This document shows positions 54,761 through 62,904 of a DNA stretch of 62,904 bases, one piece after another. Origin of the DNA: Candidatus Tayloriibacteriota bacterium (GTDB lineage: Bacteria > Patescibacteriota > Minisyncoccia > Phycocordibacterales > UBA10002); contig SIBZ01000003.1 in NCBI GenBank assembly GCA_009694955.1, forward strand, positions 1 to 62,904, read 5' to 3'. The notes below the pieces were generated by a model. The model was not told where the DNA came from. It saw only the letters and a program-made list of their open reading frames with translations, and made no database searches. Position 1 is the first letter of the stretch; the number at the start of each line of letters is the position of its first letter. The translations under genes were made by a program, and so were the position numbers.

Positions 54761-55657
54761 TTACACATGCGCGGTGTGGTGTTCTGTACCTTCTTCAGAA
54801 TGTTCATCGTGATCTTGTGCAGCAATGGTGAAGTATACGAGGACAAGAATGGAGAAAATAAGCGCTTGAATGAGCCCCACGAAGATTTCCAGAAAAAGGA
54901 ACGGGATAGGAAGAAGAAACGGCAGAATTTTGCTCATCGCCATGAGGAGCACCTCCCCCGCGAAGACGTTTCCAAACAATCGAAACGAGAGGGACGCGAT
55001 CTTGGCGAATTCGCCGATGAGCTCCAAGAGGCCGACAAAGAACGTGACAGGAGCTACCACGAGCACTGTAGGCTCTTTCGAGACCTTAGTGAAGATACTC
55101 AAGAGCGCTTTCAGGTTAACATATTTGTTGAAAGTCTTCCATATTCCGAGGGAGAAAATACCGAAAAGGTTTGCACTCACAACTGCCATGATTGCCAATG
55201 CAATAGTGGTGTTAATATCAGCCGTACCACTTCGTAAAAACGGAATAAACGATAAGCCATGCTCACCTGTTTCTATAATTCCAAATCCACCCACAGGAAG
55301 AAGGCCAAGCCAGTTGTTTACCAAAATAAAAAGGAATACGGAAATTGCCAAGGGAAAGACTTTGGCCGAGATTTTTCTGCTATTGGTGACTTGATCGCAG
55401 AGCTGAAGTGCTCCTTCAACCAGGACCTCAAAGAAATTCTGAATTCCTCGTGGAACTTCCCGTAGCTTCAAGCGAATGACAACAGCAATGAAAGCAATGA
55501 CAATAACCGCTCCGGTACTCGTCAGGAGCGCGTTTGTAACATGAAAGGAGCCGACATCGGTGACTTTCTCGGCATAGAGCGTCGTCTCATGCTTCACCTG
55601 AGGCTCCGCTTGATATTGAATAGCATCTATTTGATTTTCAGTATTATTTTGGTCCAT
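54761..55657 (-). CDS. atpB: Fo ATP synthase subunit a
   Basis: LSFRLFGNVFAGE motif with the essential Arg. Start moved to ATG 55657. Confidence 0.9.
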   Translation of the reverse strand: MDQNNTENQIDAIQYQAEPQVKHETTLYAEKVTDVGSFHVTNALLTSTGAVIVIAFIAVVIRLKLREVPRGIQNFFEVLVEGALQLCDQVTNSRKISAKVFPLAISVFLFILVNNWLGLLPVGGFGIIETGEHGLSFIPFLRSGTADINTTIALAIMAVVSANLFGIFSLGIWKTFNKYVNLKALLSIFTKVSKEPTVLVVAPVTFFVGLLELIGEFAKIASLSFRLFGNVFAGEVLLMAMSKILPFLLPIPFLFLEIFVGLIQALIFSILVLVYFTIAAQDHDEHSEEGTEHHTAHV

Positions 55658-55934
55658 TACTTTTTTCACTCTCCTTTCTGACCTCTTCCATATAGGAGTA
55701 GGCTGTACGAACAATTCCGAATGTAGAAACGGCAAACCCTACACAGGTAGAGACAATAAATATCCACGGCTCAGTAGCAAAATGCGTATCAAGATTTTTG
55801 CCTATAATGAGTGACAGAACGAGCGGAACAACAATCCAACCTGAGATCTGACTGAAGACTTTAAGGGCTGGTTTCCACCATGGTCCACTTTTCGTATCAC
55901 TCTCTTGCACGTGGTGCAGTATAGCTGAAATCAT
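55644..55934 (-). CDS. AtpZ/AtpI-like small membrane protein preceding the ATP synthase genes
   Basis: Two TM segments, first position in the operon, 14-nt overlap with atpB. ATG 55934 preferred over the TTG at 55946. Confidence 0.5.
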   Translation of the reverse strand: MISAILHHVQESDTKSGPWWKPALKVFSQISGWIVVPLVLSLIIGKNLDTHFATEPWIFIVSTCVGFAVSTFGIVRTAYSYMEEVRKESEKSNGPK

Positions 55935-55947
55935 CAGCAACGGCAAT

Positions 55948-55975
55948 AAAAAAGCCGGAGGGGTGCGCCTCCGGC
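55948..55975 (-). terminator. Intrinsic terminator between the GRDP-like gene and the atp operon
   Basis: gccggagg / cctccggc 8-bp stem followed on the minus strand by T6. Confidence 0.7.
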
Positions 55976-55998
55976 AGGGTCAAAATTTCGATCCGTTC

Positions 55999-56505
55999 TC
56001 AACCGCATTTTGCTCCGTCATCGAGTTTGTCGCTAAGGTCTCCGTCGTGGTTAACGGCCTCCGCCATCTCGTAGGCCTCACCGAACGTGGCCTCGTAGAG
56101 CTGCTTAGTCTGAGCGTACAGGATTCTGAACTCCGCCTCATCGCCCTGTGAACCAAGGTATGGAAAGTGGTGGAGGTAAAAACCGAATATTTGCTCGCAA
56201 TCTCTCGCATACTTCAGCGTATCCAGGATATGGCAATGCCAGAATATGTCCACTCCGCCATTCGGAATGATTATTGCTCCCGTACTACCGCACAAAATGA
56301 GAAAGTTCCGGTAACGTCTCTCGTGGAAGTTCAGAATTTCGTCCCTCCACTTGTGTCTTTGAGCGATGGTGACGCGTATGCATTCGAGATCAAGTGCGCT
56401 GATGGTGGTTCTAAGTTCGTCTGAGGTTCTTTGAGCTTTTCTGTATATCTTGCGGTTTGGGATCATTCTTGTCCTTTTGTTAGGAGCCACGCGAGACAAT
56501 AACAT
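55999..56505 (-). CDS. GRDP-like (DUF1399-type) protein, 168 aa
   Basis: VDIFWHCHILDTLKYARDC..HHFPY resembles the D..WH.H.L.P..Y..DC signature of glycine-rich-domain-protein-like families (recalled from memory). Confidence 0.5.
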   Translation of the reverse strand: MLLSRVAPNKRTRMIPNRKIYRKAQRTSDELRTTISALDLECIRVTIAQRHKWRDEILNFHERRYRNFLILCGSTGAIIIPNGGVDIFWHCHILDTLKYARDCEQIFGFYLHHFPYLGSQGDEAEFRILYAQTKQLYEATFGEAYEMAEAVNHDGDLSDKLDDGAKCG

Positions 56506-56512
56506 ATGTTAT

Positions 56513-57184
56513 CTATCTAAGCAATGCTCTGCTCTCACGAAGCATCCTTACTCCCGCATACACTGCTGGGGTTATAAGGATGGCAAAGGCGATTTTAAGC
56601 AGAAAATACGGAATAATCATTTTGATAACGAACAATGCGTCAAATTTTGGAGTCATCATGTAGAACGCAATGAACATGAATACGGTCGTATCCACGAGTT
56701 CCGAAGCGAATGTTGAGACGTTGGTGCGAATCCAAAGATACTTTCCCTGGGTCATTTTGCGAACCCGGTCAAAGATAAGTACATCCTGAAGTTGGGCCAA
56801 CCCAAATGCGACGATACTCGCGATGATGATACGAAGTGACGAGCCGAAAATTGTGCGGTAAGCATCGTCCGCGGCAAAACGAACATTCGGTGCCAACGTC
56901 ACAAAAATCGCCGAGTAAATCATCAGCAGTACGAGCGTTATCATACCCGCCAGCGTAAGCTGACGTGTGAACTTTTTCCCATAGAGCTCAGTTGAGATAT
57001 CGGTGATAGCGAAGGTCAGCGGTACCATGAAAACGGCCACTGAACCGACGACCCCGAAGATGGTAATGATTTTCCCGCCAAGTAGGTTCATTCCTACCAG
57101 CATTCCGATGAAAACACTAACGAGAGTGAGGAGCTTGAAATCAGCTTCAGGCTTTTGCTCGACAGAAATTATTTCTTGATTCAT
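56513..57184 (-). CDS. yhhQ: Queuosine-precursor transporter family protein (YhhQ/DUF165, VUT family)
   Basis: Six TM segments, FAITDISTELYG and DT.VF..IAF motifs. Confidence 0.8.
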   Translation of the reverse strand: MNQEIISVEQKPEADFKLLTLVSVFIGMLVGMNLLGGKIITIFGVVGSVAVFMVPLTFAITDISTELYGKKFTRQLTLAGMITLVLLMIYSAIFVTLAPNVRFAADDAYRTIFGSSLRIIIASIVAFGLAQLQDVLIFDRVRKMTQGKYLWIRTNVSTFASELVDTTVFMFIAFYMMTPKFDALFVIKMIIPYFLLKIAFAILITPAVYAGVRMLRESRALLR

Positions 57185-57768
57185 ACCTTTTTGCTATTTT
57201 TATAATGAAGTAACACTGTCCCTGTCTTGTTTAATTTTTGCATCGACTGGAGTGTAAAATCGGTTGTCCGCGAAAGCGTATTTGCAGTCAACAGTTTACC
57301 GGAACCGAAAATAACAGGCTCCACCGTTATGTACAGCTCATCAATAAGTTTTTTCTCAAGAAACCACCCGTAGATTGACGTACCACCGACAACCGCGATA
57401 CGGGTCCAAGCGTTTCTCTTAAGCAAACCGATTAATTTCTTTACAGACCCCTTAAAAGCGACAGGACTCTGGATTCCGTCTTTCGAAGGAATGACAAAAT
57501 CTCTGTGTGTGAAGACAATGCGGTTGCGGGGTTTGAGGGGGCGTGGGATAGCTTCGAAGGTCTTTCGTCCCATTATCACCGCATCCGCTTTGTCGAGCTC
57601 GGACTGGAAAAATTTCTTGTCCTCCTTTGACGTCCACTCGCTTCCCTCTCTTTTGCCTGCCGTAATCCGCCCGTCCAGGCTGACTGCGGCGATTAGAGTG
57701 AATGTTGCACCCCCTCTCAATCTCCCCCTCTCAAGAGGGGGAGAGGTAAGACGTCTACTTTTTGGCAT
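57181..57768 (-). CDS. Dihydrofolate-reductase-like (RibD C-terminal domain) protein
   Basis: IAAVSLDGRI...D.....DAVIMGRKTFE......R.RIV.T and VVGG..IY motifs. ATGA overlap with yhhQ. Confidence 0.7.
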   Translation of the reverse strand: MPKSRRLTSPPLERGRLRGGATFTLIAAVSLDGRITAGKREGSEWTSKEDKKFFQSELDKADAVIMGRKTFEAIPRPLKPRNRIVFTHRDFVIPSKDGIQSPVAFKGSVKKLIGLLKRNAWTRIAVVGGTSIYGWFLEKKLIDELYITVEPVIFGSGKLLTANTLSRTTDFTLQSMQKLNKTGTVLLHYKNSKKV

Positions 57769-58477
57769 AGAACGCTTTTAACAATGGATAGTAAATGTCC
57801 TTCTTCGGGTCAACGAAAAGTTCGCTCTGAACATTACGGGAGGTGAACCGAACTTGTGGCACCGAGCGAGCGATAGCAATGGGAATCTGTTCGGTTGTCT
57901 CGCCCATGACGGCAACGGCCGCAGCCGCGACACCATCGGCAATGTTGGACTTGGAAAACTTGAATCTCCGCCCGAAGATATCCTCCTTGCCGATATGGTT
58001 TGCCGTAGGATGAAATCCGTAGAAACCGATGGAGATACCGATGGTGCCGGAGCGCATCGGTGTGCAGTAGCTGTCGGTGATGATAACGCCGAGTTCCTTC
58101 AGACCGGTTTCCTTGCGAACGAACTTCCAGATTTCTTTTGCCGCCTTCGTCGGGTCTTTGGGCCAGAGTATCCAATATCCGTTTCCATTGCTGTCGTCTA
58201 TTCCAGCCGATGCGATGACGGTGTGTCCCTTGATTGAGAACATCACGTCCTTCACTCCGCCAAAAGCGATGCGTGACTCGGCCTCGCTCTCAACCAACCT
58301 TCTCTTTGCTTCCGGCGTTGTCGCGCGAACGCATCTCCCCTCCCCAATCGAAATCACTTTGGAGGTAATAACGAGAATATCTTTTTCCTTCAACCTTCTT
58401 GCGACTTTTGTAAGTGTCGGAAAAATATCGTCCTTTGGAGGTAGAAATGTGCGAGTTTTGATAGGTAGCACCTGCAT
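57755..58477 (-). CDS. CofE/F420-0:gamma-glutamyl-ligase-like domain protein
   Basis: ILVITSKVISI.EGR, ASAGIDDSNG and GVIITDS motifs. 14-nt overlap with the DHFR-like gene. Confidence 0.68.
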   Translation of the reverse strand: MQVLPIKTRTFLPPKDDIFPTLTKVARRLKEKDILVITSKVISIGEGRCVRATTPEAKRRLVESEAESRIAFGGVKDVMFSIKGHTVIASAGIDDSNGNGYWILWPKDPTKAAKEIWKFVRKETGLKELGVIITDSYCTPMRSGTIGISIGFYGFHPTANHIGKEDIFGRRFKFSKSNIADGVAAAAVAVMGETTEQIPIAIARSVPQVRFTSRNVQSELFVDPKKDIYYPLLKAFYAKK

Positions 58478-58613
58478 AGTTGGAAGTTAAAAGTTTATAG
58501 TTCAAAGTCAGGAAACCTCCCAACGTATCAACGTTAAACTAACCAACTATCCATAGACCACGTTTGAGTTGTTTTTGAAAGAAGCATGAAAAGTAGCATA
58601 CCATTGATTATGT

Positions 58614-58650
58614 AAATAAAAAGGCCGGCAACATCTGTCACATGTTGCCG
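58614..58650 (-). terminator. Intrinsic terminator about 135 nt upstream of the CofE-like gene
   Basis: cggcaacat / atgttgccg 9-bp stem with a 7-nt loop, followed on the minus strand by gccTTTTTaTTT. Confidence 0.65.
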
Positions 58651-58771
58651 AACCTATGAATCCCGGCAGTCCTTTTGGACCATGCTGTGCCCCTTCCAAG
58701 GCGGGGAACGTTTTGACTTTAGGGTTTAATACATTTTCAGCCATAATTATAGTTGGTTGATTTGCACTGCT

Positions 58772-58835
58772 CTAAGCGCATTCCTACACCGGTACATACC
58801 GGTTCGGCCGCTTAGTATTGGGAGTGTTTCCCAAT
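58772..58835 (-). ncRNA. Two adjacent stable stem-loops of unknown function (candidate leader or sRNA module)
   Basis: attggga/tcccaat (58817..58835), and ctaagcg/cgcttag (58772..58815) enclosing accgg/ccggt. Confidence 0.3.
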
Positions 58836-58893
58836 TCGAAAATACTACACAATGAATGCAGTGTGTCAAGAAGGTGAACGTCGAACAGGCGTC

Positions 58894-59415
58894 CTACTCG
58901 GTATGCACGCGGTGGTGTTCGGACATAATCATATCCTTTAGAACGTTCGGGTGGGCAACCCCTTTAAACACAAATGACTCGTTGCTGGCGGTGTGTATCT
59001 CAACCGTTCCAAAGCCAATGAGTGTCTCGACAAGACCGGAGACCTTCACCGTCGTGTCTTGTATCTGGTCGAACCGAAAAAACGAAACTTTTCGGTTGAA
59101 GAGCCCGATTTGCTCGATATCGACGACGCGGTGATTAGTAAGTACCCAGATGTCCAGATAGTAGTTGGTCCAGAGCAGAGCAAGCATAAGCCAGAGAAGG
59201 AGGAGCCACAAACTCCAAAAAAATGTAAAAAGTGGAACTCCGTAATTAACAACATGCAATGCGGAAAATGCTTCGTTAAACGCCGACACCGGAATCAGCA
59301 AGAGAGCCAGAGGCACTACCGCGAAAAAGAACAAAAAAATAGTCTGGCCGAAAAACAAGAACCAGTGCTTCCGCGCAATGTACAAAATTTTCTCACCGTC
59401 TTCGAGAGTAAGCAT
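58894..59415 (-). CDS. Membrane protein with bacterial PH (bPH_2/YdbS-YdbT-like) domain
   Basis: GEKILYIARKHWF, two TM segments, then Y.LTN.RVV.......R.......I.D... typical of bPH_2. Confidence 0.62.
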   Translation of the reverse strand: MLTLEDGEKILYIARKHWFLFFGQTIFLFFFAVVPLALLLIPVSAFNEAFSALHVVNYGVPLFTFFWSLWLLLLWLMLALLWTNYYLDIWVLTNHRVVDIEQIGLFNRKVSFFRFDQIQDTTVKVSGLVETLIGFGTVEIHTASNESFVFKGVAHPNVLKDMIMSEHHRVHTE

Positions 59416-59421
59416 ACGGTT

Positions 59422-59646
59422 TTATTCAAGGATTAAAAAAACGTAGGAAAGAATCGCTAGAGCGCAGAACGCTGTCGAAAAAGCCAAGTAGATGGGTGGC
59501 GCCAACTTTATGAACCTCGTGTTCATCCCATACTCCTTCCAGTGATAGAGAAAGGCCGCGCTCAGTGCCCCGAAAACGAAAAGGCAGAGCACGAGCAGGA
59601 TGCCGAGCGAGAGCGGACTGAGAAGCGTTGAAAACTCAAAATTCAT
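59422..59646 (-). CDS. Small two-TM membrane protein, 74 aa
   Basis: ORF track. 6 nt upstream of the PH-domain gene. Confidence 0.5.
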   Translation of the reverse strand: MNFEFSTLLSPLSLGILLVLCLFVFGALSAAFLYHWKEYGMNTRFIKLAPPIYLAFSTAFCALAILSYVFLILE

Positions 59647-59690
59647 AACACAATTCTACACCGCGCAATTCAAAGATAAAAGGTTCTGCG

Positions 59691-61337
59691 TCAGGCCGAA
59701 ATCCTGAACGTTTCGGGCGGGAGCAAGAATTTCTCGATAAGCGCCTTGTTCGCCTCGACTCTCCGGACCAAAATAAGCACCCGTTCATCGACATACACGG
59801 GAGCCCACTCGGGGTCCTGTAAGCGCTGTATCATAAAATGCTGTCCCCACGGCGTTGCATCGCGATGGGAAAAGATAATTGAGTTGAAGCGGTATTCGCC
59901 GAGTTTTTCTTTCCATACTGCGTTATCCTCCTGCATCGGGATATATGTTTTCTGGAAAAATTCGACAGGATACGCTTCGGGACGGTTGTCGACAAATACC
60001 TTTTCCGAAGGAAACAAATAAAAGATAAGATAGCCACCAATATCGTAGTTGTTGAAGTACGGACCCTGAACACCTTCCTTCTGCAGAAATTCGATTGCTC
60101 TGCCGTTGCCTTTCTGCAATCCGAACCCGAACGAGTGCCAGTACGGGAAGAAGCGCGGAAGTGTGAGGAGTACCGTAAGAAACAGCGTGACGAACGAACA
60201 GAAGACGGCAGGCGAAAGCACCGCTCTTTCCGCGAGCGGACGCCGGATTGCCGTTTGAACTCCGGATGCCAGGAACGGGATGGAAAAAAGACCGAACAGA
60301 GCGATATTTCTGATGGCAAACCACGCCATAATGCTGATGCCAGCCATCACGAACACCTGCGCCAATCGTATTTTGCGCCAATTCCTTACTGCGGTTACAA
60401 GAAGCGTGAGCAGGCAAAACGCAAATACGATTTTAAAAATCAGGAAGCTCGGGTCGGCCATAATTCTCTCCATAAACCAGACCGACTGATTTTCTGCAAG
60501 CTTGTACCCGTAATTCTTGAAAATGCCGACAGCCTCCGTGAGCGCTCGGTAGCCATAGGGATTAATAAATATCGCCAAGACTACCGAAATAAATACCGAC
60601 AGCAACCGCAAAAATCGCTTTCGATAGATAAGCAGGCTCTCAAGAAGAAACGCCCCCAAAATGAGCGGACCTAGAAGAAAGTAAATATGTGAATTGACCC
60701 AGAGAATCTGAATAACTGGCAGCAGCCAGAGCGAACTCTCGCTTCGCAGTACATAGGTACGGTCGTGGCCGTTTACTTCAGGCTGGTCGTTCACCTCCGA
60801 AAATCGGGAAAGTAGAAAAAAGAAAAACCCGGCGAACAGGTAGCTAAACACCTCAGGGCGTATTTCCGTGCGCTCAGCGAGCAGGAAAATCGCGGGAAGA
60901 GCGGCAAGGCCGACAACTCCCCAGGGCGCATAGAGGCGAGCAACTTTCAAAAACATGAAAAGCGCCAAAAAGCTAAGCAGTATGAAAAAAAGATGCACTC
61001 CCGTAAACCCGAACAATGCGAAAACCACATATGTAAGGAAACCGCTTCCCCAGTGGTGGTTAATCGCATGAAAGTTGGGGTTTGTATACGAGTAGAAGTT
61101 TTCCTGAAGTACCGTCGTATCCTGAAGCAACATCTCTCCGTTCTTAAGGTGACGTCCGAGGTCGGCGGTCACAAGGTCAATCGGATGCGAAAGAAAGAAT
61201 CCGTAGAGCGCGAATAAAATTGTGCAAAGAAGCAGTACGTTGCTGTTTCGAAACAGCCACGCGAAAGAGGGTCTCTCGGCCCATTTGGGTTCACGCTGTA
61301 AAACGTCTAGCAAGCGTGTAGCCGGCTCATTTTCCAT
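59691..61337 (-). CDS. Large polytopic membrane protein, 548 aa; the GT-C-type glycosyltransferase fold is only a guess
   Basis: About 12 hydrophobic segments followed by about 130 aa of soluble C-terminal domain. Start set to ATG 61337; the track's TTG start at 61439 lies inside IR-L. Confidence 0.65.
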   Translation of the reverse strand: MENEPATRLLDVLQREPKWAERPSFAWLFRNSNVLLLCTILFALYGFFLSHPIDLVTADLGRHLKNGEMLLQDTTVLQENFYSYTNPNFHAINHHWGSGFLTYVVFALFGFTGVHLFFILLSFLALFMFLKVARLYAPWGVVGLAALPAIFLLAERTEIRPEVFSYLFAGFFFFLLSRFSEVNDQPEVNGHDRTYVLRSESSLWLLPVIQILWVNSHIYFLLGPLILGAFLLESLLIYRKRFLRLLSVFISVVLAIFINPYGYRALTEAVGIFKNYGYKLAENQSVWFMERIMADPSFLIFKIVFAFCLLTLLVTAVRNWRKIRLAQVFVMAGISIMAWFAIRNIALFGLFSIPFLASGVQTAIRRPLAERAVLSPAVFCSFVTLFLTVLLTLPRFFPYWHSFGFGLQKGNGRAIEFLQKEGVQGPYFNNYDIGGYLIFYLFPSEKVFVDNRPEAYPVEFFQKTYIPMQEDNAVWKEKLGEYRFNSIIFSHRDATPWGQHFMIQRLQDPEWAPVYVDERVLILVRRVEANKALIEKFLLPPETFRISA

Positions 61338-61375
61338 TGGGAAATTGTAGCATACACTATCATTTACAGACTCAC

Positions 61376-61498
61376 CACCCGATTGAATTTCCTCGCGAAA
61401 ATGCGTCCGCGCTCCGCGCGGTGATGGGAAGTTCGGCAAGAAAAGAAAAGGGCGTTTTGAAATCCACGGAGAGCGCGCTTGCGCGCAAATGGCGGTTC
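61376..61498. repeat. IR-L, left arm of a perfect 123-bp inverted repeat
   Basis: Exact reverse complement of 62637..62759, checked base by base. Confidence 0.95.
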
Positions 61499-62333
61499 TA
61501 TGAGCTAAAGCTCATTCTGTGGAATACCACAGGAGACGATGGGAAGCGAGATTTAGAAATTGTCGGTGTAATGCAAAACCTTTTATCAATTTAATCCCCG
61601 AAGCTCATGATCAAATATTTTATATATTGTAGGAAATCGAGTGAAGATGAAGAACGCCAAGTTTTGAGTATTGAGGCGCAACTTCATGAGCTTCGGGAAT
61701 ACGCCAAGCAAAATGGTTTGTTTGTTGTTCGTGAGTATTACGAGAGTAAAACTGCCAAAGAGCCTGGTCGTGAAGTATTTAACAAAATGCTTGGCGAAAT
61801 TGAAAAAGGTTCTGCTTCGGGAATTTTAGCGTGGAATCCAGACCGTTTAGCGAGAAATAGTATTGATGGTGGCAAGGTCATATATTTTGTGGACACGCTA
61901 AAAATTGTTGCGCTAAAATTCCCGACATTTTGGTTCGAAGCGACACCCCAAGGAAAATTCATGTTGAGTGTCGCTTTCGGACAGGCAAAATATTACACCG
62001 ACAATTTGAGAGAAAACATTTTGCGTGGCATACGACAAAAGATACGCCGTGGTGAATTATCGGCAAAAGCTCCAATCGGTTATTTTAACGAACCGCGACT
62101 TCGCACGATTGAACCTGACAAAAAGACCTTTCGTAAAATAAAAGAAGTATTGGAGCTTTTTTCTACTGGCGAATATACACTCACGGCAATTGCCCGCAAA
62201 ATGTTCTCTCTTGGCTTGGTTGGCGCACGATCCGGCAAACCTTTCGCACTCGCCTCGGTAGAACATATTTTGAAAAATCCTTTTTACTATGGATATTTTT
62301 CTTACCGAGGCGAGGTGCATCAAGGTTCGCACA

Positions 62334-62362
62334 AGCCAATGATTTCCTTTTCGCTCAAAATC
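62334..62362. repeat. Left arm of a nested perfect 29-bp inverted repeat
   Basis: agccaatgatttccttttcgctcaaaatc is the reverse complement of 62506..62534. Confidence 0.95.
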
Positions 62363-62505
62363 TGCGTTTTTCTATTTCTGACATCAAAGCTAAAATTGAC
62401 CGCCTCATGGATGGATACTTGGATGGTGGTTTTGAATTGTCGGAGTTTCAACAGAAAAAGAACGCTTTGATGTCTGAAAAGAAAACGCTAGAGGAAAAAT
62501 TATCT

Positions 62506-62534
62506 GATTTTGAGCGAAAAGGAAATCATTGGCT
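62506..62534. repeat. Right arm of the nested perfect 29-bp inverted repeat
   Basis: gattttgagcgaaaaggaaatcattggct. The spacer between arms is 143 bp. Confidence 0.95.
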
Positions 62535-62636
62535 CGAACTCGTGCGAAACTGGATTTTACAAGCCAACCAAGCACAAAATCTCGCTTTTTCAAAAAAGTT
62601 TGAGGAAATGAAAACTTTTTTGAAAACCATCGGCTC

Positions 62637-62759
62637 GAACCGCCATTTGCGCGCAAGCGCGCTCTCCGTGGATTTCAAAACGCCCTTTTCTTTTCTTGCC
62701 GAACTTCCCATCACCGCGCGGAGCGCGGACGCATTTTCGCGAGGAAATTCAATCGGGTG
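62637..62759. repeat. IR-R, right arm of the perfect 123-bp inverted repeat, inside the recombinase 3' coding region
   Basis: Exact reverse complement of 61376..61498. Confidence 0.95.
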
Positions 62760-62904
62760 TCTCTATTGTACCAAGTTAGAACCTATTTTCAAAACAAAGT
62801 GAGGTAATGAATTCCGTCACGCCGTAGCGTCCACTCCACCGAACACCGCAAGGTGTTCGGCTCCGTTCCCGCTCCGTCGCTCCGCCCTCGCCTCGCCACC
62901 ACGC

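Follow-up and report, generated by a model that had tools for sequence, protein, structure and literature searches.

Why does a coding gene contain a long and perfect inverted repeat exactly where its reading frame breaks, and is such a repeat a working part of the gene or the trace of an accident? The question is raised by the end of contig SIBZ01000003.1 (GenBank assembly GCA_009694955.1) of a Candidatus Tayloriibacteriota bacterium, a member of the Patescibacteria, where a 29-nucleotide (nt) inverted repeat lies inside a large serine recombinase gene. The window analysed is this one whole contig, 62,904 nt long, from a genome of 868,699 nt in 52 contigs. The repeat is very probably the scar of a deletion of ~350 nt within the recombinase gene, most likely made by a template switch. 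The gene itself belongs to a family, widespread in Patescibacteria (also known as the Candidate Phyla Radiation, CPR), that by the evidence of its sequences carries about 20 nested, non-crossing, covarying helices along its whole length.

A broken recombinase gene and its intact relatives

In the list of open reading frames (ORFs), the recombinase ORF that begins at ATG 61607 terminates at a stop at 62468-62470, and translation of the -1 frame gives a stretch free of stops from 62347 to its own stop at 62800-62802. A Pfam search of the window copy detected Resolvase (PF00239, 1.4e-20, residues 5-150) and Recombinase (PF07508, 3e-08, residues 178-247), the latter match ending at profile position 88 of 102, at the joint between the two frames; the zinc ribbon (PF13408) was not found in the window copy by Pfam. 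With its frame shifted and 116-117 codons gone, this copy does not hold a zinc ribbon and coiled coil in one frame with its catalytic domain.

Comparison with relatives defined what is missing. A DNA search of 60 related genomes and the window's own genome recovered two intact orthologues, L002 (84% nt identity) and L003 (79%), which align to the window up to 62346 and again from 62346 on, with ~348 extra nt between. The genome also contains three full-length paralogues of ~51% identity, each with a Cys-rich ribbon (C42:4914-6476, minus strand; C38:439-2034, plus strand; C13:152-1762, plus strand); two of them lie at the start of a contig, nested inverted repeats abound in all three, and the sequence in which each ends (…GLEPS, …GLEPPRP, …GNRTRI) resembles a tRNA 3' end in reverse complement. 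A scan of genome_contigs gave at least 600 matching stretches, at least 578 of them encoding relatives. Among the best 80, which were kept, protein identity was 67-100% and many Patescibacteria classes were represented. Six of these 80 were very near the window, with up to 96% nt and 98% amino acid identity and 348-350 extra nt at the joint. In the 289 nt after the joint these six (L060, L059, L026, L025, L027 and L032) were 96.2-98.6% identical to the window, and the next loci reached at most 83.3%.

The closest of the best 80, L060, encodes an intact protein of 508 residues, with which the window shares 98.4% of residues upstream of the joint and 97.7% downstream. The window lacks the 116-117 residues KKTFDK...NRQSSG(V) of this protein; the matching stretch of L002, residues 263-378, contains the Pfam domain Zn_ribbon_recom (275-333). 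At the DNA level, 350 nt were lost and 1 base was gained, and since the net change is -349 nt the frame is shifted. The preliminary description of this locus, made from the letters alone, had reported the frame break, the missing zinc-ribbon segment and, as one reading, a rearrangement or deletion joint inside the left arm of the repeat, and had proposed alignment to full-length homologues; the intact relatives bear out the first three and give the loss its exact size. The scenario that it had named as telling against its reading did not hold: a 1-nt indel in the T run does not match the 348-350 nt that are absent relative to eight intact genes, and homologues that naturally lack ribbon and repeat were not what we found, as the homologues have the ribbon and also have the repeat, in split form. 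A programmed ribosomal frameshift was considered as well and rejected, as the shift would not restore the 116-117 residues that include the zinc ribbon.

The repeat is as exact as had been described. Positions 62334-62362 (AGCCAATGATTTCCTTTTCGCTCAAAATC) are exactly reverse-complementary to 62506-62534 across a spacer of 143 nt, and each arm occurs once in the 868,699-nt genome; by arithmetic, ~7e-9 perfect inverted repeats of at least 29 nt are expected in the window by chance. Folded as single-stranded DNA (ssDNA), 62320-62550 reaches -62.2 kcal/mol, compared with -24.5 ± 3.2 for 200 shuffles (z -11.85; 0/200 as good), and the weaker outward similarity that had also been noted shows up in this fold as pairing of GGTTCGCAC with GTGCGAAAC.

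The two arms differ in kind. The right arm, segment C, aligns without gaps to S-[DN]-F-E-R-K-G-N-H-W-L of the orthologues and to the matching paralogue segment, and on this alignment is ordinary native coding sequence. The left arm is, by the same comparison, a fusion of two native pieces. In intact genes, the reverse complement of C equals a segment A, one unpaired base and a segment B, the two pieces lying ~350 nt apart: A is AGCCAATGATT (K-P-M-I-S codons) and B is CCTTTTCGCTCAAAAT[C] (L-F-A-Q-N codons). The pieces are 11 + 17 nt long in L002 and L003, and 13 + 15 nt in the closest clade. Sequences A and B were present in every intact family member examined, in two separate conserved helices. 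A chance likeness of the arms to native motifs was rejected, both arms being native and the left one in two pieces.

Origin of the joint

The endpoints of the deletion fall exactly at helix ends. In alignment A1 of the family (described below), each of the five helices that involve the deleted stretch (helices 13-17) pairs entirely within it. An energy-only ssDNA fold of the closest intact gene gives -140.4 kcal/mol, against -67.4 ± 4.7 for shuffled sequences (z -15.5; 0/100 as good), and in this L060-type fold A-C and B-C form outer stems of a four-way junction whose two inner branches, one long composite hairpin and one short hairpin, are the lost stretch and encode the zinc-ribbon region. 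The deletion thus took out exactly two inner branches, to within one base; two endpoints placed at random would not have this effect. Since the direct repeat at the endpoints is at most 1 nt, slippage between direct repeats is an unlikely cause.

The base at the joint bears on how the branches were lost. In the six closest relatives the native left flank reads ATTTC/aaag and the native right flank gggaG/TTTT in five and gggtG/TTTT in one (the slash marks the endpoint). The C at 62347 in the window pairs with the G of GGA in arm C and is absent from both flanks in all six (6/6).

We propose the following sequence of events. In a single strand, A-C and B-C would pair to form the outer stems of the four-way junction. 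A polymerase would copy one of the paired segments, and its growing end would anneal to the complementary arm, copy through the junction, and with it the base that faces the unpaired G, and then rejoin the original template past the folded branches. The inner branches (350 nt, 116-117 codons) would thereby be lost and one base written from arm C, so that A and B become a contiguous 29-nt complement. The gene would now encode the catalytic and recombinase domains plus a junk tail, and we infer that the product is inactive and the gene a recent pseudogene; the event appears recent because so little separates the flanks from L060 (98.4% and 97.7% identity in protein) and because the downstream frame is open.

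That polymerases switch template between the arms of inverted repeats, with mutation as the result, is well established (PMC7202029, PMC8604942). The window shows the marks of such quasipalindrome mutation, namely an inverted copy nearby (arm C, 143 nt downstream, 29/29) and a product more perfect than its parent palindrome, which is interrupted. The junction would on this model be a deletion hotspot dependent on arm C.

Several points weigh against this account. The extra C is weak when taken alone: where the site could be located in family loci, the base before TTTTCG is C in 65 of 74, G in 8 and T in 1, so the direct ancestor may already have had it. Were the C ancestral, the scar would be a clean deletion, and hairpin bypass would explain it equally well. 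The switch may also have occurred in vitro during library amplification, or an intact allele may coexist in the population. A hotspot predicts recurrence, and the window copy is the one instance of this deletion seen, with none in metagenome_contigs. L058 has an internal deletion of ~77-80 nt that does not obviously end at helix bases; this loss, within the zinc-ribbon region around 1103-1107 (element positions ~1182-1261), was the sole other candidate internal deletion that turned up.

The first of these points amounts to an alternative in which a polymerase bypassed the folded branches in a clean, structure-juxtaposed deletion that left arm C uncopied, with the C at 62347 as the ancestral base flanking B. 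Endpoints at the base of the folded branches are predicted by hairpin bypass too, and the prevalence of C across the family is in its favour. The G found in all six closest relatives, which are separated by a wide gap in identity from the next loci, argues the other way, and endpoint homology of at most 1 nt is poor for slippage. We regard a clean deletion as distinctly unlikely.

The site of the repeat lies 370-570 nt from the contig end, and inverted repeats provoke polymerase jumps, both of which speak for an artefact, either an in-vitro polymerase jump (in library PCR or whole-genome amplification) or a mis-assembly near the contig end. However, a mis-join in the assembly graph would need overlaps of a mere 13 and 15 nt, probably below the usual word lengths of assemblers, both flanks come from one close clade, and an in-vitro jump would need to dominate the reads. 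We infer that the event took place in the cell rather than in the tube, and hold an artefact to be very improbable.

Least credible of all is the suggestion in the preliminary description that the 29-nt arms are recombination sites of a second small invertible segment, whose 143-nt flip would switch the enzyme. Perfect arms and a short spacer inside a recombinase gene do resemble such a switch, and the family's larger outer repeat probably inverts, to judge by its layout. Yet the arms are native to two separate helices, the left one being only a by-product of the deletion that is not present in intact genes, and the gene is already broken in its current orientation. The description had held that inverting the spacer stops both frames at once. 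This is so for the ATG frame (stop at 62366); the -1 frame runs on for 38 codons to 62461, and the flip thus only adds stops. Its proposal that the arms might resemble crossover sites elsewhere in the genome found no match, each arm being single-copy, and the ~20 other arm pairs of the gene, each of a different sequence, could not all serve one enzyme as sites. The fused A-B arm had 0 matches in metagenome_contigs, compared with at least 121 for the intact A junction there, and no second instance of it was seen; the fused allele appears private as far as these data go. A functional small inverton is extremely improbable.

Nested helices along the gene family

The pairings at the deletion joint belong to a larger system. 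Intact orthologues carry perfect inverted repeats that never cross, one outer pair of 133 nt and, inside it, ~20 pairs of 9-20 nt, and the window matches them wherever sequence is kept. Alignment A1 comprises the 33 of the 80 loci that span from left to right outer arm; in the remaining 47 the ends have diverged or the sequence breaks off too soon. Its structure, defined as column pairs found in perfect repeats of at least 9 nt in at least 30% of sequences, contains 259 inner pairs in 20 helices. Standard pairs were formed in 91.0% of cells, compared with 36-48% when the partner was slid by 1-3 columns, a contrast flattered by the derivation of the structure from the same sequences that were tested. 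Counted with the sequences treated without phylogeny correction, 50 pairs changed on both sides (13-29 when slid; 33.3 ± 2.7 in shuffles, 0/500 as high) and 224 cells showed a double change (39-87 when slid; 96 ± 8 in shuffles, 0/500 as high). The spacer of the 29-nt repeat also holds one of these helices (62380-62390 / 62464-62474; 16 nt at 94% from 62375), which is helix 19 of A1 and shows compensated changes relative to L002.

Four checks were independent of how the A1 structure was derived: synonymous shuffling, paralogues, third codon positions and close pairs. Synonymous shuffles of three genes (200 each) gave a mean of 0.01 repeats of at least 14 nt, where 4-6 were observed, and ~0.1 of at least 12 nt, where 6-7 were observed, which rules out the repeats as a product of amino acid sequence and codon usage. 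At 51% identity, the paralogues have repeats of other sequence in the alignment columns that hold A-C, B-C, the 3' hairpin and the first inner branch (for A-C, AGCCAATGATT, CGAGCCAATCATT and ATTCTTTCTC). The helices shared with the three paralogues numbered 4, 4 and 2, against null means of 0.24, 0.19 and 0.12 and null maxima of 3, 2 and 2 in 2000 circular shifts; the 2 observed for C42 equals its null maximum. Third codon positions were more conserved inside helices (identity 0.873, n=160) than outside (0.708, n=298; Mann-Whitney p = 3e-19, for sites that are non-independent). Among close pairs of loci (85-93% identical), 203 compensated double differences were counted, compared with 18-42 for slid partners, over 91 non-independent pairs. 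The energy-only fold of L060 and the paralogues are independent support for a conserved secondary structure.

A habit of the genome as a whole was ruled out as the source of the repeats. Of the 390 perfect repeats of at least 12 nt in the 869 kb, the largest numbers per 2-kb bin, 13 and 12, fall in the recombinase loci on C38 and C13. The locus on C42 shares third place with 7 repeats, and the window's two bins have 5 and 4. Nor did the repeats appear to be a general property of serine recombinase genes in a small sample of three phage genes (24-27% identity), which had 0, 1 and 1 perfect inverted repeats of at least 12 nt; four intact family genes had 6-10, and the counted 1.03 kb of the window copy had 5. 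Other clusters of perfect repeats, outside recombinase genes, were seen at C22:8593-9302 (two adjacent pairs of 24 and 25 nt, ~600 nt apart), C31:32570-32979 and C6:12538-13318. The outer arms and helix 19 have a short motif in common, TTTCCGCC[AT] (A1 columns 114-122, 1493-1500, 1588-1596 and 1813-1821), which allows alternative, mutually exclusive pairings, with support in 14-20 of the 33 sequences.

Whether the helices act in DNA or RNA is suggested by their mismatches. The non-Watson-Crick cells of the inner helices comprise 228 G·T, 223 A·C and 538 transversion mismatches, and the pattern is DNA-like rather than RNA-like because G·T is no commoner than A·C. Selection on a fold of the sense RNA would be expected to accept G·U much more readily than A·C. 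According to PMC6993869, paired sites in RNAs and RNA viruses show a preference for G·U, and ssDNA virus genomes show little or none for G·T. The window adds a second line of evidence, its deletion being a sign that A-C and B-C pair in DNA. We favour the view, drawn from these sequence patterns, that the family-wide helices reflect intrastrand pairing of single-stranded DNA.

The same two observations count against an alternative in which the helices are a structure of the recombinase mRNA, serving for example translational control or RNase III processing, and not a DNA fold. One helix (61597-61610 / 61684-61697) does span 12-14 nt just before and over the start codon, for which the fold-back inhibition of transposase mRNAs offers a parallel, and the promoter-like site of the canonical upstream piece (see below) would put both outer arms in one transcript. 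An Rfam search of 59000-62904 gave no match at gathering score, only three sub-threshold matches of miRNA precursors to the hairpin shape (e.g. 29.4 bits vs 500). RNA structure as the general explanation seems to us rather unlikely; an mRNA role for some helices, notably that over the start codon, is possible.

Within the DNA reading, the helices may be selected for function or may be maintained by repeated template switching that homogenises their arms. As a functionless, self-perpetuating by-product, they would result from frequent template switching in a locus that is often single-stranded, for example behind the 133-nt outer repeat. Template switching does homogenise arms (PMC8604942), there is no wobble preference, the window would record one such switch, and coupled double changes are already seen at 85-93% identity (203 vs 18-42 slid). 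Against this stand the organisation of the helices, which never cross and, over 1.7 kb, follow one another with no unpaired base between, and their retention at homologous codons despite full sequence turnover in the 51%-identity paralogues, with both coding arms constrained; neutral drive would need to outrun protein-level selection at ~500 positions. We consider the by-product explanation possible but doubtful.

Comparably tentative is the idea that the gene is built to fold as ssDNA, with its ~20 nested helices and 133-bp closing stem, and that the islands pass through an obligatory single-stranded stage. The islands have no transfer genes yet are common to many CPR classes, at 67-93% protein identity, and entry might take, for example, a competence (DNA-uptake) route. 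The fold would then protect the strand, prime its conversion to duplex, or offer a duplex attachment site, and the window's deletion would be a trace left naturally by the fold at work in the cell.

Layout of the locus and kinship with known systems

The 29-nt pair is nested within an outer 123-nt perfect inverted repeat (Table 1). In the canonical layout, seen in a complete genome (L049, CP064994.1), a 48-nt 'T' piece is followed by the left arm, the gene and the right arm, which is the gene 3' end, and a tRNA gene on the opposite strand abuts the right outer arm; homology between loci stops ~50-70 nt beyond the outer arms. The L049 copy (L049:1501-2565) is itself broken, its frame stopping after 354 codons with a 1-nt gap near A1 column 1410, and decayed copies of the recombinase gene seem common. 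In the window, a T-like piece lies in reverse orientation to the right of the right arm (62760-62814), where the canonical place is upstream of the left arm, and in contrast to the canonical layout no tRNA gene was found in 55000-62904. The cassette thus looks flipped or 'off', with no adjoining tRNA gene. A crude survey of the 80 loci placed the T piece upstream in 30 and downstream in 0, with 49 undetected and 1 without a gene match; many of the 49 lack the flank or have a diverged piece, and the survey gives no frequency for the window layout.

A second T piece and the GC-rich sequence following it occur at C49:100-302, near a contig end (93% over 57 nt, 75% over 97 nt), and in many related genomes these 50-60 nt are again seen close to contig ends. 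Beside the recombinase gene, the minus strand of the window holds a 582-codon ORF (59691-61439) for a multi-pass membrane-like protein without a Pfam match; its longest reading starts within the left outer arm, and the true start is probably an internal Met (…MENEPATRLL).

Table 1. Coordinates of the recombinase locus and its paired segments in the window
Feature	Position	Strand	Evidence and remarks
Left arm of outer 123-nt perfect inverted repeat, inverted copy of gene 3' end	61376..61498		Homologous 124-133-nt repeat in 33 aligned elements
Conserved helix 61557-61572 / 61992-62007 (16 nt), enclosing the next two	61557..62007		The three are helices 3, 4 and 6 of A1
Helix 61597-61610 / 61684-61697 (14 nt)	within 61557..62007		Covers start codon region
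Helix 61817-61831 / 61911-61925 (15 nt)	within 61557..62007		
5' part of large serine recombinase gene (Resolvase + Recombinase), ATG frame up to joint	61607..62346	+	ORF list, Pfam, 98.4% amino acid identity to L060 over 246 residues
Conserved helix 62015-62025 / 62195-62205 (17 nt at 94% from 62009), enclosing 62065-62076 / 62149-62160			Helices 8 and 9 of A1
Conserved helix 62214-62224 / 62563-62573 (GCTTGGTTGGC), enclosing the 29-nt repeat			Helix 10 of A1, 97.5% of cells paired
Segment A (AGCCAATGATTTC, codons K-P-M-I-S), native 5' arm of A-C helix	62334..62346	+	Same codons in intact L002, L003, L059, L026, L060; helix 12 of A1, 99.2% of cells paired
Junction base C	62347	+	Complementary to G of GGA in right arm; in neither native flank of six closest intact relatives
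3' part of recombinase gene (coiled-coil, C-terminal region), -1 frame	62347..62802	+	Translation; 97.7% amino acid identity to L060 over 130 residues
Segment B (TTTTCGCTCAAAATC, codons F-A-Q-N), native 5' arm of B-C helix, here fused to A	62348..62362	+	~350 nt downstream of A in intact genes; helix 18 of A1, 97.5% of cells paired
143-nt spacer, native coding sequence (...EKLS)	62363..62505	+	Holds conserved helix 62380-62390 / 62464-62474
Right arm, segment C (GATTTTGAGCGAAAAGGAAATCATTGGCT), native coding, shared 3' arm of B-C and A-C helices	62506..62534	+	Gapless alignment to paralogues and orthologues; 29/29 identical in L059, L026, L060
Local hairpin 62587-62601 / 62612-62626 (15 nt, 10-nt loop)			Helix 20 of A1; relatives' hairpin differs in sequence, 8/17 pairs change on both sides
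Right arm of outer repeat, native 3' coding end of gene	62637..62759		
Promoter-like site TTGAAA-16-TGnTACAAT in T piece	62765..62792	-	Best site of scan, 10/12 matches with TG; directed into gene 3' end

Intact family members have all three domains of large serine recombinases of the phiC31, Bxb1, A118 and TP901-1 type (Resolvase, Recombinase and Zn_ribbon_recom) and, like island integrases, lie at the 3' end of tRNA genes; the window copy departs from these enzymes in being frameshifted and without its zinc ribbon. Models for template switching and palindrome-directed deletion reportedly go back to Ripley in 1982 and to Glickman and Ripley in 1984. The quasipalindrome mutations and palindrome-directed deletions treated by the Lovett laboratory in Escherichia coli (PMC7202029) and in PMC8604942 share with the window a nearby inverted copy as alternative template, a product more perfectly palindromic than its parent and, probably, bases at the joint that come from the other arm. 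Those cases are mostly changes of a few bases in one imperfect hairpin, whereas here the arm bridges two helices of a multi-branch junction and 350 nt of folded coding sequence are removed.

Genome-scale secondary structure in the coding regions of ssDNA viruses is said to have been described by Muhire et al. in 2014. The family resembles these viruses, as portrayed in PMC6993869, in conserved pairing within coding DNA, complementary coevolution, the lack of G·T favouring, and lowered synonymous variation at paired sites. It differs from them in that the element is seen integrated in double-stranded bacterial chromosomes and is not known to have a single-stranded stage, and in the unusual length and perfection of its helices (up to 20 nt, with an outer stem of 133 nt). 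With invertons, including the intragenic ones reported in 10.1101/2023.03.11.532203, it shares inverted repeats within a gene and an outer repeat that probably inverts; the 29-nt pair, however, is deletion-born and bears no mark of inversion, and the internal arm pairs differ in sequence and are nested in the manner of a fold rather than of recombination sites.

In the attC sites of integrons and the attP of CTX phage, inverted segments of one strand pair into a functional duplex. Those are short sites for tyrosine recombinases that exchange one strand pair, whereas here the paired sequence is a serine recombinase gene. Within open-access full text, no description was found of this gene family or of internal repeats in serine recombinase genes, nor of a coding gene of a chromosomal element constrained along its full length by DNA-type pairing.

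Taken alone, the window holds a dead gene with a tidy scar, produced by a mechanism of known kind. The scar is legible only through the split complement of its right arm in the intact gene, and it is this complement that leads to the gene-wide system of helices in an island family present in hundreds of Patescibacteria genomes. For annotation, precise loss of folded sub-domains is to be expected in such genes, and their internal repeats should be taken neither for invertons nor for sequencing errors. If the proposed pairing is true, these elements, or the locus that carries them, would spend an important part of their life single-stranded, which would bear on how genes move among tiny uncultured bacteria.

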